From an uncultured Candidatus Saccharibacteria bacterium (GTDB lineage: Bacteria > Patescibacteriota > Minisyncoccia > UBA6257 > WO2-44-18): a DNA stretch of 46,171 nucleotides. Position 1 is the stretch's first letter. Every line of letters starts with the position of its first letter. Positions 1,297 to 37,587 of this stretch are shown in pieces. Below the pieces are notes generated by a model that was not told the DNA's origin, ran no database searches, and saw nothing but the letters and a program-made list of their open reading frames with translations. Location: NCBI GenBank assembly GCA_964545345.1, contig CAZJFE010000002.1:1-46171 (forward strand), written 5' to 3'. The position numbers were made by a program, and so were the translations under genes.

Positions 1297-1417
1297 ATGA
1301 AATCCCGTTAGAAATTCTACTCAACCGAGTTAGGAGGACTAATGGGTAGTCTGCTAATATGAGACAAATGTATTTTATAAAGTCGTTGTTTGGTCAATAT
1401 TTCTAACGGGATGAAAT
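1297..1417 (+). promoter_or_regulatory. Start-codon-masking long-range inverted repeat, copy 1 (ATGAAAT direct repeats, 14-bp stem, 83-nt loop, mini-ORF MKSR*)
   Basis: ATCCCGTTAGAAAT (1302-1315) is the exact reverse complement of ATTTCTAACGGGAT (1399-1412). The 3' arm ends in the ATG at 1411. ATGAAAT occurs at 1297-1303 and 1411-1417. Confidence 0.7.
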
Positions 1418-3420: not shown

Positions 3421-4407
3421 ATGATCATCACTAGAACTCCTTTTCGTGTCACTTTGGGTGGTGGTGGAACTGACCTTCCTTCTTATTACGAAAAATATGG
3501 AGGGTTTATTTTTTCCGCTGGCTTGGATAAATATATGTATATTACTGTTAACCGCGCCTTGGAAGATGATCTAATACGGCTGAAATACTCCAAAACAGAA
3601 ACTGTTGAGCGAGTGGATCAACTGGAGCACGGTATTGCGCGGGAGGCTTTGCGAATGATGGGCATTGATAAGAAAATTGAGATTAGTTCGGTGGCGGATG
3701 TTTCTGCCGGCACCGGCCTCGGATCTTCCAGCTGCTATGCCGTCGGGGTCTTGAACGCTCTGCATACTTTGCGGCGTGATTACGTTTCGTTACAGCAGAT
3801 TGCCGAAGAAGATTTCAAATTGGAGAATCAAATTTTGAAGCGCCCGATCGGTAAACAAGATCCATATTTGGCGGCTTTTGGAGGGTTGACGGTTTTAGAT
3901 ATCGCTAAGGATGGGAAGGTTAAAGTCCGCAAGGCGAGTGTTTCTGAAGCTACGGCCGCTGATCTGAATCACAATCTGCTGTTGTTTTTTACCGGCGTGA
4001 CTAGAAGCGCTGATACAATCTTGAAAGAGCAATCCACATCGGTGAAAGATGACAAGAAAAGCGTAGTAGACAGTATGAACTACATTAAAGAATTGGGCTA
4101 TGAAATTTTAGAAGCGGTGGAAAGCGACAATATTTCTGAGGTGGGGCGGCTATTTGATGCCCATTGGCAACATAAGAAGAAAATTTCCAGCAAAATGTCT
4201 AATCCACAGTTTGATAAAATTTATAAGGACGCCAAAGCTAACGGCGCTTTGGGTGGAAAGATTTCCGGAGCGGGCGGCGGCGGTTTTTTCACCTTTTACG
4301 TTGAGAGCGATCACGCGAAGTTCCGGGAAGCGATGAAGAAGTGGGGACTGAAGGAGATGCGCTACAATTTTGATCATGAAGGATCAAAAGTTCTGGTTGA
4401 CTTGTAG
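3421..4407 (+). CDS. hddA: GHMP-family sugar kinase, D-glycero-alpha-D-manno-heptose-7-phosphate kinase-like
   Basis: N-terminus MIITRTPFRVTLGGGGTDLPSYY and GHMP motif GTGLGSSS. It sits among gmhA, gmhB and a nucleotidyltransferase gene. Confidence 0.75.
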   Translation: MIITRTPFRVTLGGGGTDLPSYYEKYGGFIFSAGLDKYMYITVNRALEDDLIRLKYSKTETVERVDQLEHGIAREALRMMGIDKKIEISSVADVSAGTGLGSSSCYAVGVLNALHTLRRDYVSLQQIAEEDFKLENQILKRPIGKQDPYLAAFGGLTVLDIAKDGKVKVRKASVSEATAADLNHNLLLFFTGVTRSADTILKEQSTSVKDDKKSVVDSMNYIKELGYEILEAVESDNISEVGRLFDAHWQHKKKISSKMSNPQFDKIYKDAKANGALGGKISGAGGGGFFTFYVESDHAKFREAMKKWGLKEMRYNFDHEGSKVLVDL

Positions 4408-4443
4408 GGCATTTTTGTAGCACAATCATACTTGCAATAAGTT

Positions 4444-5172
4444 ATGCCTATTAAGATCCACAATCTGAAAATAAAGATTTTCGCCGATGGGGCCGAAAAG
4501 GACGGTATGATTGAGCTCGCAAAAAAGCCATATATTCAAGGCTTTACTACTAACCCTACGTTAATGCGTAAGGCGGGTATTACCGATTATGTAAAATTTG
4601 CCAAAGAGGTTGTTGCCGCAATCCCGGATAAGCCGATTTCTTTTGAAGTTTTTTCCGATGATTTCAAAGAAATGGAGCGGCAGGCGAAAATTATTTCTTC
4701 TTGGGGTAAGAACGTTTATGTAAAAATTCCGATTACCAACACCAAGCGGGAATCGGCGGTGCCTTTAATCGCTAAATTAGTTTCCGCTGGGATCAAAGTG
4801 AATGTTACGGCCGTTTTCACTGTTAAGCAGGTGGAGGAGGTTGCAAAGGTTCTTTCTAAGAAAATTCCTTCAGTTGTTTCAGTTTTTGCAGGCAGAATTG
4901 CGGATGCGGGGTATGATCCTAAGCATTATATGAAAAAAGCGAAAGCGATTCTGGATTCTAACCCCAAAGCGGAGCTTTTGTGGGCTAGTCCTCGGGAGCT
5001 TTGGAACGTCTACCAAGCGCACAAAGTTGGATGCGATATTATTACTGTTCCGCACGACATTCTTAAGAAAATGGAGAAGTTGGGTTACGATCTGGACGAA
5101 TTTTCTCTGGACACCGTGAAAATGTTTTACGAAGATGGCCAGAAAGTCGGTTACACGTTATACGAATCCTAA
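4444..5172 (+). CDS. tal: Transaldolase / fructose-6-phosphate aldolase family protein
   Basis: FADGA...GFTTNPTL and the Schiff-base lysine context NVYVKIPITN. Length 242 aa. Confidence 0.8.
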   Translation: MPIKIHNLKIKIFADGAEKDGMIELAKKPYIQGFTTNPTLMRKAGITDYVKFAKEVVAAIPDKPISFEVFSDDFKEMERQAKIISSWGKNVYVKIPITNTKRESAVPLIAKLVSAGIKVNVTAVFTVKQVEEVAKVLSKKIPSVVSVFAGRIADAGYDPKHYMKKAKAILDSNPKAELLWASPRELWNVYQAHKVGCDIITVPHDILKKMEKLGYDLDEFSLDTVKMFYEDGQKVGYTLYES

Positions 5173-26768: not shown

Positions 26769-26900
26769 ATGAATCCCGTTAGAAACAGCCAAACCTAAAT
26801 AACCATGACAATTAATATGCAAAAATCAGTCGTGAATAAAAAAGTAGTATGTGTGCCACGGGTACGCCCGGCAGGCGCACCCTGCTTCTAACGGGATGAA
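26769..26900 (+). promoter_or_regulatory. Start-codon-masking long-range inverted repeat, copy 2 (12+3 bp stem, about 93-nt loop, mini-ORF MNPVRNSQT*)
   Basis: ATCCCGTTAGAA (26773-26784) pairs with TTCTAACGGGAT (26886-26897), extended by CAG/CTG after one mismatch. The 3' arm ends in the ATG at 26896. ATGAA lies on both flanks. Confidence 0.7.
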
Positions 26901-27597
26901 AGGAGTTATCTTAGCGGGTGGCTTAGGGACTCGGCTTCACCCGGTGACCTTGGAAATGCCCAAGCCATTATTGACCGTTAAGCGGCGGCCGATTTTGAAT
27001 CACTTATTAGATTTGTTTAAGAAACACGGCATTGATCAGCCGACGATTTTGATTAACAAAGGCCACCTTGAAGATTACCAGTGGTGGCAGAGGCGTTATG
27101 AGAAAGAAGTGCCGGCGAATTTGGAATTAGTTGTGGAGCCGGAACCGCTGGGCACTTTCGGTGGATTAAAGATTGTTAAAGAGCGTCTGACGGAACCGTT
27201 TATTTTGTCTAACGGCGATGAGCTAAAGGATTTTGATTTAGGGGCGCTGGTCAAGGCGCACAGAGAAAATCCTACCAAACCGGTGGCGACGATCGCCCTT
27301 GTTGAAGTAGAAAACCCATCCGATTATGGAGTACCGGTTTTAGATGGAGATAAAATAAAAGAATTTTTAGAAAAACCGCAAAATCCGCCGTCCAATTTTA
27401 TTTCTTCCGGCCTCTACGTGGTGGAACCGGAGATTTTTCAATACGCGGATTGGTCAAAAAACTTTCTAATGATTGAAAGGGATATTTTCCCGAAAGTAGC
27501 CGCTGCCGGCAAATTGGCCGGTTACAAAGTTAAAAACGGCAAATGGTATGACTGCGGGACGTTTAGCCGCTGGGAAAAAGCTATTAAAGAGTGGTAG
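26896..27597 (+). CDS. Sugar-1-phosphate nucleotidyltransferase (mannose/glucose-1-phosphate)
   Basis: MKGVILAGGLGTRLHPVTLEMPKPLL signature begins at ATG 26896. The track's start at 26851 adds 15 non-conserved residues. Confidence 0.85.
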   Translation: MKGVILAGGLGTRLHPVTLEMPKPLLTVKRRPILNHLLDLFKKHGIDQPTILINKGHLEDYQWWQRRYEKEVPANLELVVEPEPLGTFGGLKIVKERLTEPFILSNGDELKDFDLGALVKAHRENPTKPVATIALVEVENPSDYGVPVLDGDKIKEFLEKPQNPPSNFISSGLYVVEPEIFQYADWSKNFLMIERDIFPKVAAAGKLAGYKVKNGKWYDCGTFSRWEKAIKEW

Positions 27598-32589: not shown

Positions 32590-32738
32590 TTGCGGGCTGT
32601 AAGCAAAGCTTTCGGCCCATCACTCGGAGAAAGCGCACAAGTAAGCTTGTCCGATTCTCCTTCGTTCGGGCTGTAAGCAGAGCTTGCAGCCCATCATTCG
32701 GAAGAAGCGTACAAGCGAGCTAGTACGATCTTCCTTCA
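32590..32738 (+). repeat. Two tandem 74-75-nt units, each folding into two hairpins, sharing the 5' sequence TTCGGGCTGTA with the tRNA that follows
   Basis: Unit A spans 32590-32664 and unit B 32665-32738, about 80 percent identical. The stem of hairpin 2 changes GGAGAA/TTCTCC to GGAAGA/TCTTCC, which is compensatory. Confidence 0.7.
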
Positions 32739-32740
32739 TT

Positions 32741-32919
32741 CGGGCTGTAGTATATCGGCAGTACACACGCCCCGCCCCCACACCAAAATTTCGGAGAGTA
32801 GTATATCGGCAGTACACACGCTTCGGGTGCGTGAAGGCCGGGTTCGATTCCCGGCTCTCCGACGGTGTGGTGTGGGGGTGAAGGTGCGTGAGGGCTGGGT
32901 TCGATTCCCAGCAGCCCGA
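32741..32919 (+). tRNA. Interrupted tRNA-Pro-like gene (outer): intact acceptor, D, anticodon-stem and T arms, but 115 nt in place of the 7-nt anticodon loop
   Basis: The 5' part is CGGGCTG TA GTAT ATCGGCA GTAC A CACGC (32741-32770). The 3' part is GCGTG AGGG CTGGG TTCGATT CCCAG CAGCCCG A (32886-32919). C1-G72 and A73 match the Pro signature. No identifiable NGG loop. Confidence 0.6.
32792..32862 (+). tRNA. tRNA-Pro (anticodon CGG), 71 nt, no encoded CCA
   Basis: Manual cloverleaf: CGGAGAG/CTCTCCG acceptor, D arm GTAT-ATCGGCA-GTAC, anticodon arm CACGC-TTCGGGT-GCGTG, 4-nt variable loop, T arm CCGGG-TTCGATT-CCCGG, and A73. Confidence 0.85.
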
Positions 32920-32930
32920 CTAAACAAAAG

Positions 32931-37041: not shown

Positions 37042-37050
37042 TGGTATAAT
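37042..37050 (+). promoter_or_regulatory. Extended -10 promoter TGgTATAAT, 7 nt before the upstream ATG at 37058
   Basis: TG at 37042-37043 and TATAAT at 37045-37050. The predicted transcription start falls at or next to A37058. Confidence 0.55.
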
Positions 37051-37057
37051 TAAGTTA

Positions 37058-37181
37058 ATGAATCCCACACATAACAAAGAGTGCCGTGGGATCGTAATAG
37101 TCGTCGGGCGTAATTTATAAACATAAAAAATAATTAAAGACAGAGAGCGAATAAATAACTCTTTGTTATGTGTGGGATGAA
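37058..37181 (+). promoter_or_regulatory. Start-codon-masking long-range inverted repeat, copy 3 (21-bp perfect stem, 75-nt loop, mini-ORF of 20 codons)
   Basis: ATCCCACACATAACAAAGAGT (37062-37082) is the exact reverse complement of 37158-37178. The 3' arm ends in the ATG at 37177. ATGAAT lies on both flanks. The uORF (MNPTHNKECRGIVIVVGRNL*) spans 37058-37120. Confidence 0.75.
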
Positions 37182-37587
37182 TAAAAAAATGCTTCTTTGG
37201 TTAGTGGTTGCCGCTGTTTTGTTGGTCGGAGGGTATTTAGTTTTTGGTCCGGGTAAATCCGTAGTTCCCCTACCAGGTCTGGGAACATCACCGACTCCAA
37301 GCACTCAGCCGTCGCCCGCTCCGACTACCGGAGGATTAGTTCAGGTAGCGATTCGCGGATTCTCGTTTGTAGGAGCAAGTACTAAGGTGGTGCCTGGCAC
37401 TACTGTCGTTTGGAAGAATTTTGATGATGTGAATCACAGCGTTGTTGGAGCTAGTTTCCAGAGTAAAATTTTGGGTAAGGGGGGATCTTATTCCTATAAG
37501 TTTACTAAAGAAGGCACCTATCCCTATTACGACGGTCTCCACCCTGAAACCAAAGGTGAGATCATCGTTCGGAACAGTAATTTCTAG
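37177..37587 (+). CDS. Membrane-anchored cupredoxin-fold protein (plastocyanin/amicyanin-like) lacking the canonical Cys ligand
   Basis: N-terminal TM segment, a Pro/Thr linker, then VVWKNFDDVNHSV...GTYPYYDGLHPETKGEIIV. In the position of Y-C-x-x-H-x-x-M the sequence reads Y-D-G-L-H-P-E-T. Confidence 0.65.
   Translation: MNKKMLLWLVVAAVLLVGGYLVFGPGKSVVPLPGLGTSPTPSTQPSPAPTTGGLVQVAIRGFSFVGASTKVVPGTTVVWKNFDDVNHSVVGASFQSKILGKGGSYSYKFTKEGTYPYYDGLHPETKGEIIVRNSNF

Follow-up and report, generated by a model that had tools for sequence, protein, structure and literature searches.

Hairpin inserts at the start codons of unrelated genes in a Saccharibacteria contig as probable MITE-like copies of a very small mobile element family

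What kind of sequence would place a similar hairpin exactly on the start codons of three unrelated genes? The question is raised by a contig stretch of 46,171 nt from an uncultured Candidatus Saccharibacteria bacterium (CAZJFE010000002.1, assembly GCA_964545345.1; the whole stretch is referred to here as the window), in which inverted repeats stand in front of an epimerase gene (copy 1), a nucleotidyltransferase gene (copy 2) and a cupredoxin-like membrane protein gene (copy 3). The first-pass annotation of this DNA had offered three explanations, namely a translational switch, small insertions resembling miniature inverted-repeat transposable elements (MITEs) with an ATGAA duplication, or short invertible promoter segments. 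Our analysis strongly favors the second, as target duplications, empty sites, hundreds of copies and a longer coding relative were all found. We consider it very probable that the window copies are MITE-like members of a family of tiny mobile elements of the Candidate Phyla Radiation (CPR, or Patescibacteria), whose full-length form carries a single open reading frame (ORF) for a nuclease.

Reading of the sequence and an inverted-repeat scan confirmed the three elements, and most of what the first-pass annotation had observed around them held as well: ATGAAAT is present at 1297-1303 and 1411-1417, AGTCGT at 1381, 26828 and 37099, and ATG 1411 is the real epimerase start, as the corresponding ATG of orthologues gives the N-termini MKDKGLVLVTGG and MKGLVLV. 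The short frame MKSR-stop (1297-1311, + strand) exists too, but AGGAAG (1288-1293) lies 3 nt upstream of ATG 1297 and not 4 nt as described. ATGAA is present at both outer flanks of every copy, and direct repeats of TGAA or TGAAA border all three. All features of the copies and the genes behind them are on the + strand.

The arms of copy 1 form a perfect 14-bp inverted repeat (1302-1315 and 1399-1412) with 83 nt between them. Its core of 109 bp (1303-1411, TCCCGTTAGAAAT…ATTTCTAACGGGA, that is, TCCCG…CGGGA) has no nuclease gene, ends in terminal inverted repeats at 1303-1315 and 1399-1411, and is flanked by the target-site duplication TGAAA at 1298-1302 and 1412-1416. The 3′ repeat includes a TAA stop (1404-1406), and its final base, A 1411, is the A of the rebuilt epimerase ATG, while the ancestral start codon (1297-1299) is now cut off from the gene and opens only MKSR. 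As RNA, copy 1 folds into a hairpin of −32.8 kcal/mol (z = −2.9). A chance origin of its arms is excluded, because by our own estimate 46 kb should contain only about 0.03 perfect inverted repeats of 14 bp with arms within 150 nt, and the same arms recur in at least 120 other genomes.

The two other copies have the same anatomy. In copy 2, arms of 16 nt (26773-26788 and 26882-26897, 94% complementary by the scan) close a core of 123 bp (26774-26896, TCCCGTTAGAAAC…GCTTCTAACGGGA) between TGAA at 26770-26773 and 26897-26900, with the ancestral ATG at 26769-26771 and the rebuilt one at 26896-26898. The core of copy 3, 115 bp long, belongs to a different arm subfamily (37063-37177, TCCCACACATAACAAAGAGT…ACTCTTTGTTATGTGTGGGA); its 28-nt arms (37055-37082 and 37158-37185) are 89% complementary with a perfect inner 24 bp, the duplicated TGAA lies at 37059-37062 and 37178-37181, and the ancestral and rebuilt ATG occupy 37058-37060 and 37177-37179. 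None of the three carries a long gene, and their mini-ORFs do not exceed 28 codons.

The most direct evidence for mobility comes from relatives in which the sites are empty. At the copy 1 site, orthologues without the insertion read …cgtATGAAGGAT…, and the epimerase orthologue with 93% identity (L126 and L127) reads …gccgtATGAAGGATAAAGGA…. At the copy 2 site, L147, with a 94% identical nucleotidyltransferase orthologue, reads …ttcaggcaATGAAAGGAGTT…, where the window reads …ttcaggaaATGAA-TCCCG…CGGGA-TGAAAGGAGTT…. These close relatives derive from Hainich groundwater, and more remote orthologues are also empty (L128 for copy 1, L149 for copy 2), which contradicts the possibility that the elements are fixed at the same sites in all relatives. 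Elsewhere, two copies at different genes of one contig (L043) are 96.6% identical, pointing to recent movement. The window copies thus combine inverted repeats, a target duplication, a small geneless core, empty sites (copies 1 and 2) and a longer coding relative, as expected of MITEs.

Further copies, which the first-pass annotation had proposed to look for in other genomes, turned out to be abundant. A scan of one genome per species with the pattern ATCCCGTTAGAA-N75-105-TTCTAACGGGAT gave at least 120 matching stretches, and the arms occur in at least 120 species-level genomes, nearly all of them metagenome-assembled genomes (MAGs) of CPR/Patescibacteria from many lineages, including Saccharibacteria, Nomurabacteria, Kaiserbacteria, Paceibacterota and Levyibacteriota among the matches listed. 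The family counts given here refer to the 139 copies in the listed loci and the window, and several statistics to 125 or 126 of them. An 11-nt arm core, TCCCGTTAGAA, is common to 131 copies. Neither the short nor the long element pattern was present in 2.9 million viral contigs, and carriage by phages was therefore rejected.

The target of the family is overwhelmingly the host start codon. An ATG opening an ORF of at least 60 codons adjoins 129 of the 139 copies (93%), compared with 26% among all ATGs, and of the TGNA sites in these loci only 2.8% coincide with the first ATG of an ORF of that length. Duplications of 4 bp with the form T-N-N-A predominate (TGAA 75, TGGA 16, TGTA 5, TAAA 3; also TGCA, TTTA and TTAA). 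Directly before the left duplication stands an A in 106 of 126 copies, and the original target was therefore a start codon, A|TGNA; on insertion TGNA is duplicated, and the terminal A of the element together with TG rebuilds ATG. In some loci the upstream start is now GTG, ACG, CTG or ATA with the downstream start still ATG, so that selection acts on the downstream one. The −10-like hexamer TAnnnT has a sharp peak 6-7 nt ahead of the upstream start (44 of 126 copies at these two positions, where the background is 3-4 per position), and a Shine-Dalgarno-like sequence was found in 10 copies only; many targets, about a third, are thus leaderless genes. Copy 3 is one example, with an extended −10 box (TGGTATAAT, 37042-37050, + strand) 7 nt upstream of its ancestral ATG that would mark a leaderless promoter at the insertion site. 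As a separate observation, an arm variant has C…G in place of T…A at the outermost ends (CCCCGTTAGAG…CTCTAACGGGG; L162 801-1085 and L045 ~3911-4144, in tandem in L045) and rebuilds GTG instead of ATG for the host gene, which is smpB in L162.

The longer coding relative was recognized in two arm pairs that lie 277-280 bp apart (L105 and L107), instead of the usual ~110 bp, and enclose one ORF. Full-length elements measure 277-281 bp and hold one ORF of 93-95 amino acids, whose first and last codons lie inside terminal inverted repeats of 11-14 bp (TCCCGTTAGAG…CTCTAACGGGA); in L107 it reads MNPVRDDEYYYVYVLRS…GKRFLKNRLKRFLSLTG-stop. We read six independent full-length sites (L105, L107, L140, L143, L157 and L162), of which L105 lies in an intergenic TTAA and the five others share the inverted repeats, the start-codon site and the TGAA duplication. 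Gene calls show a 4-nt overlap of the nuclease and host ORFs (ATGA or GTGA) in L140, L143, L157 and L162, and in L107 a rebuilt ATGA followed by an open frame was read from the sequence only. Host genes of a recognized family include a glycosyltransferase, a sugar transferase and smpB (L162). Long and short copies share contigs in L105 and L107.

The way in which this ORF is built ties it to the element. A protein search retrieved 2296 relatives, and among the best 120 homologue clusters 89 begin with MNPVR (ATG AAT CCC GTT AGA, the target ATG plus the 5′ arm) and 95 end in LSLTG with a TGA stop, where the 3′ arm meets the duplicated target. The nuclease ORF thus borrows both its start and its stop codon: it opens at the original ATG of the host gene (MNPVRD…), so that the host promoter is used, and it is closed by the TGA within the target duplication, which overlaps the rebuilt host ATG. 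The product matches the Pfam domain GIY-YIG (PF01541, E = 1e-16), and Y11, Y13, Y24, G26, R32, H38, E70 and N84 are invariant across homologues that average 55% identity, residues that we assign to the putative catalytic motifs of GIY-YIG enzymes. Its AlphaFold model (pLDDT 88) comprises the catalytic core and one basic C-terminal helix. The closest sequence among known structures is 1zg2 (E = 6e-11), and the best fold matches are again 1zg2 (UPF0213 protein BH0048) and then Slx1 (TM about 0.6), ahead of I-TevI and UvrC; the NCBIfam model for group I intron endonucleases scores far under its cutoff. The wider family comprises 17,553 representative clusters at E ≤ 1e-3. Some of its proteins are longer, with the GIY-YIG part N-terminal in P0277 (223 amino acids), P0280 (237) and P0281 (600) and internal in P0308 (655); such proteins may be fusions produced by read-through into host genes at duplicated targets other than TGA, or gene-calling artifacts.

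The short copies of the window have lost the nuclease gene and kept the ends and the orientation, plus a mini-ORF in copies 1 and 2. Interiors of short copies are mostly unrelated to one another, but orientation is retained across the family: an asymmetric 4-nt bulge WYCT, which we read as the TTC CTG codons near the nuclease C-terminus, is gene-proximal in 69 and distal in 10 of the 79 scorable copies, and BLAST pairs between interiors have the same orientation in 36 cases and the opposite in 1. An nhmmer comparison with the nuclease gene gave weak similarity confined to the last 20-35 nt of its 3′ end, mostly in the same orientation, and a simple origin of the short interiors by deletion within the nuclease gene was rejected on that result.

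A reading frame through the element is retained as well. The frame that ends at the TAA of the 3′ arm (TTC TAA CGGG ATG) stays open for a mean of 20.3 codons, compared with 7.6 and 12.7 in the other frames and about 12 on the reverse strand and in shuffled interiors. An ORF of at least 10 codons that begins with ATG and ends at this TAA, 4 nt before the host ATG, was found in 55 of 126 copies, against 8.7% of shuffles. The whole element, from the upstream target ATG on, is spanned by 25 of these ORFs (MNPVR…F-stop), and others start at an internal ATG, often behind a −10-like or Shine-Dalgarno-like sequence. In copy 1 the mini-ORF is MRQMYFIKSLFGQYF-stop (1359-1406, + strand), ending 4 nt before the gene ATG, and in copy 2 it is MTINMQKSVVNKKVVCVPRVRPAGAPCF-stop (26805-26891, + strand), ending at the arm TAA 26889-26891. 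Coupling by an ORF from the upstream ATG was rejected as the general route, since only 33 of 112 such ORFs reach the 3′ arm and the signal lies in the arm-TAA frame instead. An outward promoter in the 3′ arm was also discarded, as the arm, on reading of its sequence, offers no −10 match at the right distance.

Variation within the arms is informative about the level at which they pair. Arm positions 12-13 (window 1314-1315 and 1399-1400) vary between A and G, or T and C, and are Watson-Crick matched within the copy in 116-120 of 125 cases, and the arm mismatches comprise 5 G·U and 8 A·C, so that no sense-strand G·U bias is seen. Covariation without such a bias suggests that the arms pair, or are kept symmetrical, as DNA, for instance in a hairpin or cruciform intermediate. 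Because ends that mutate independently would lose their match after insertion, the matched positions suggest either that the copies are very recent or that one arm is templated by the other. A further feature of the interiors is the pentamer AGTCG, which is present, at varying positions, in 21 of 125 short interiors in sense and in 2 in antisense (dinucleotide shuffles: mean 5.3, maximum 11); TATGAA (21 versus 3) and AACGGG (11 versus 2) are similarly strand-biased. The AGTCGT hexamer of the window copies is therefore part of a real motif.

Taken together, these features allow a mechanism to be proposed. In the transcript the arms would pair and hide the host AUG, ribosomes on the mini-ORF, or on the nuclease ORF in full-length copies, would melt the helix, and by terminating at or beside the host AUG they would re-initiate there, so that the host gene would stay expressed through translational coupling. 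The GIY-YIG nuclease would mobilize long and short copies alike, probably by acting on a hairpin or cruciform made by the arms. We propose, tentatively and at somewhat less than even odds, that this 94-amino-acid nuclease of the Slx1/UPF0213 type is the mobilizing enzyme of an unrecognized class of prokaryotic transposable element that moves through a hairpin or cruciform of its own ends; the same reserve applies to the rest of that proposal, in which start codons, above all of leaderless genes, would be targeted, promoter, start and stop would be borrowed, and the host gene would be expressed by termination and re-initiation. The short elements themselves are MITEs, with an unusual parent. 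Searches of the open full-text literature, outside which subscription journals lie, turned up no account of the element; a GIY-YIG domain protein has been listed among genes transferred from Patescibacteria, with no element noted (PMC12455944).

Several points weigh against this account. The 46-kb window contains no nuclease gene by homologue search, a mini-ORF that ends beside the ATG is missing from copy 3, so that coupling is not universal, and about half of the short copies have no ATG-initiated ORF of at least 10 codons in the favored frame. The length of the duplication varies between 3 and 5 bp across the family and is 5 bp in copy 1 itself, and as the loci were chosen by an exact-arm pattern, one subfamily is over-represented. 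We infer the transcription starts, the hairpin in vivo and re-initiation from sequence features. A 4-bp duplication is typical of DDE transposases, and GIY-YIG enzymes are hydrolytic nucleases that are not known to carry out strand transfer.

These last two points also speak for the alternative that the elements are ordinary MITEs moved by a conventional transposase, for example of the DDE type, encoded elsewhere, with the GIY-YIG ORF as cargo or a selfish passenger. Perfect terminal inverted repeats with a 4-bp duplication are classic DDE features, and the short interiors, with their weak 3′-end matches only, mostly do not resemble the nuclease gene. However, all matching arm pairs in 940 kb of element-bearing loci are 100-281 bp apart, with no transposase-sized gene enclosed, and the sole long form is the nuclease ORF, for which the repeats themselves encode both protein termini in about 90 of 120 homologue clusters and whose presumed catalytic residues are conserved. 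We regard movement by such a conventional transposase as unlikely, although it deserves more weight than any reading discussed below. It is far less probable that the hairpins are RNA regulatory leaders (thermosensor, riboswitch or upstream-ORF switch) selected for masking of the AUG rather than mobile DNA. A stable helix does cover two bases of the AUG triplet, and conservation of the mini-ORF frame implies that translation through the element matters; in this respect, the earlier idea that an upstream ORF opens the helix survives for the mini-ORF that ends at the arm TAA, but not for MKSR, which is not conserved. There is no indication of a switch by ligand or temperature: the copies have unrelated loops, and Rfam returned only tRNA for the whole window at the gathering threshold and, at E values up to 10, nothing for copy 1 and chance-level matches for copy 2, in agreement with the initial remark that no named riboswitch or leader class could be recognized. 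The sites are empty in relatives with 93-94% identical proteins, target duplications flank the elements, and the ends are shared with a nuclease-coding element. The argument that compensated stems reveal selection on RNA structure fails, because the arms are transposon terminal inverted repeats and are complementary by construction, and their mismatches have no G·U bias.

A slightly smaller chance still is left to invertons, in which a site-specific recombinase would flip the segment and switch the promoters of surface-polysaccharide genes. This would suit inverted repeats around an AT-rich segment with −10-like boxes, the sugar-nucleotide genes behind two of the three window copies, and the opposite orientation of the interior in 10 of 79 scorable copies. 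Against it stand the orientation bias relative to the gene (69:10 and 36:1), the same orientation of the orthologous insertions L038 and L116, the target duplications and empty sites, which are unexpected for invertons, and the absence of a recombinase in a scan of 20 window ORFs; for recombinase synapsis, moreover, a length of 75-100 bp is very short. The invertible promoter of the first-pass annotation is accordingly abandoned. We give the lowest probability to translational hopping of the kind known from T4 gene 60 and mitochondrial 'byp' elements, in which the initiator tRNA would leave the upstream AUG and land on its identical counterpart where the hairpin ends. The AUG(N)A sequences on the two sides of the compact hairpin are indeed identical, and many upstream AUGs lie at the 5′ end of leaderless transcripts, but the upstream copy has decayed to ACG, CTG, ATA or GTG in several loci where the downstream ATG is retained, the element at 100-125 nt is double the gene-60 gap, and in full-length copies the upstream AUG is plainly the start of the nuclease ORF. 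A hammerhead ribozyme, an integron attC site and an archaeal bulge-helix-bulge intron were also considered and set aside, as core motifs, arm order or cut geometry, judged from the sequence, do not seem to fit.

Insertion at the first codon also has consequences for annotation. The rebuilt start codons open the gene for the NAD-dependent epimerase/dehydratase (1411-2550, start codon 1411-1413), the nucleotidyltransferase gene (26896-27597) and the cupredoxin-like membrane protein gene (37177-37587). Public gene calls place the epimerase start at TTG 1390, within the element (386 amino acids), and not at ATG 1411, and the element gives rise to systematic mis-annotation of N-termini. Exact-protein look-ups of the epimerase from ATG 1411 and of the copy 3 gene product gave no match, because gene callers picked other starts; the same genes as in the window were found in ENA ERZ27284378 and GCA_007376325.1. 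Upstream of copy 1, an intrinsic terminator of the HAD-hydrolase gene (1245-1270, + strand; an 11-bp stem followed by a T run) means that the epimerase gene must have its own promoter between 1271 and 1411. An extended −10-like box read within copy 1 (TGCTAATAT, 1352-1360, + strand) would be suited to start a transcript near the in-frame ATG 1368; a promoter scan of the copy 1 region found no two-hexamer promoter. Elsewhere in the window, a 20-nt inverted repeat (4412-4431 and 4505-4524, 80% complementary) lies across the start, at 4444, of a transaldolase-like gene; it has neither TCCC/GGGA ends nor a flanking duplication and is probably due to chance.

Apart from start codons, we noted inserts associated with tRNA genes. 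The resident tRNA-Pro(CGG) gene at 32741-32925 of the window is interrupted within the anticodon loop by ~130 nt of inserted sequence that reads CCCCCACACC-AAAATTT, a complete second tRNA-Pro(CGG) (32792-32863), AC-GGTGTGGTGTGGGGG-TGAA. The resident gene is intact in the relative L155, and the same insert is present in L153, a 95% relative. The insert arms resemble the arm variant TCCCCACACCTT of the MITE in L015, and the 3′ edge GGGGG|TGAA resembles GGGA|TGAA; no clean boundaries or target duplication could be derived. The insert may represent a relative of these elements with a replacement tRNA of its own. Next to it, at 32593-32749, lies a tandem repeat with a period of 74 nt (2.1 copies, 83% identical), whose tRNA-sized units contain internal hairpins and start with CGGGCTGTA, as does the resident tRNA-Pro over its initial 9 nt; the repeat is missing in L155, and L153 has one unit. 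In L082 (5100-5600, − strand) and L004 (4380-4780, − strand), another GIY-YIG gene of ~90 amino acids, which shares 38-42% identity with the start-codon family, is bordered on one side by a 5′ tRNA fragment with an odd arm (CCCGATGGSCATCGGG) and on the other by a complete tRNA-Gly(GCC) or tRNA-Ala(TGC). This arrangement suggests a second type of GIY-YIG element that targets tRNA genes. Elements related to the start-codon family may also hit tRNA genes and supply a replacement tRNA, with the split tRNA-Pro as a possible example.

If the nuclease does drive movement, GIY-YIG would join DDE, DEDD, HUH, serine, tyrosine and Cas1 enzymes among the prokaryotic transposase classes, and at ~280 bp the full-length form would be the smallest autonomous prokaryotic transposable element, setting a new lower size limit. 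The family also illustrates how selfish DNA could last in CPR genomes with almost no spare intergenic space, by landing on the first codon, rebuilding it and tying host translation to that of the element. The small 'GIY-YIG nuclease family proteins' and the gene-start hairpins of CPR MAGs would belong to one mobile family, and promoters and 5′ ends of the affected genes would be shifted by 100-280 nt. Through the −10 boxes 6-7 nt upstream, the insertions would mark leaderless genes in an uncultured phylum, and the element would be a portable module for start-codon masking and coupling, a natural tool.

Among known systems, the Correia/NEMIS elements of Neisseria and the ERIC/IRU elements of enterobacteria come closest to the short copies, as they are 100-150 bp long with terminal inverted repeats and a short target duplication, reach many copies per genome with presence/absence differences between strains, and are co-transcribed with their neighbors to form mRNA hairpins, some with promoters. 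Unlike these, the CPR elements sit exactly on start codons (93%), rebuild the ATG, are biased in orientation relative to the gene and have a mini-ORF that stops 4 nt before it, and their only coding relative specifies a GIY-YIG and not a DDE enzyme. REPINs with their RAYT enzymes and the palindromes derived from IS200/IS605 are likewise hairpin-forming, non-autonomous repeats served by a small non-DDE nuclease, but they make no target duplication, depend on HUH-Y1 enzymes, are intergenic and show no start-codon specificity. Rickettsia palindromic elements share the lifestyle of small palindromic selfish elements in reduced genomes that spare host gene function; they insert in frame inside ORFs and are translated with the host protein, whereas the CPR elements stay outside the ORF at its first codon and would rely on translational coupling instead.

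The nuclease has parallels of its own. GIY-YIG homing endonuclease genes, whether free-standing or carried by introns (T4 Seg, I-TevI), are also selfish units with a GIY-YIG nuclease as sole product, but they spread by double-strand-break repair into one cognate allele, have no inverted repeats or duplication, and encode proteins of more than 200 amino acids with an extra DNA-binding domain, whereas the CPR element enters many unrelated genes and its 94-amino-acid protein is structurally nearer to UPF0213/Slx1 than to I-TevI. In sequence and fold it resembles the small UPF0213 proteins (BH0048, EF2693) and Slx1, a structure-specific nuclease of eukaryotes, and the cutting of branched and stem-loop DNA by Slx1 fits an element with ends capable of forming a hairpin or cruciform; UPF0213 and Slx1 are regarded as cellular genes, however, and are not known to be mobile or flanked by inverted repeats. 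The junction with the host gene recalls two familiar arrangements, the overlapping ATGA of coupled genes, as the nuclease ORF ends in ATGA over the host start, and the unmasking of a start by a leader ORF, as the mini-ORF of short copies ends 4 nt upstream of the helix-paired AUG. In contrast to coupling that evolved within operons, the coupling device of the CPR elements would be carried by a mobile element and created upon insertion.

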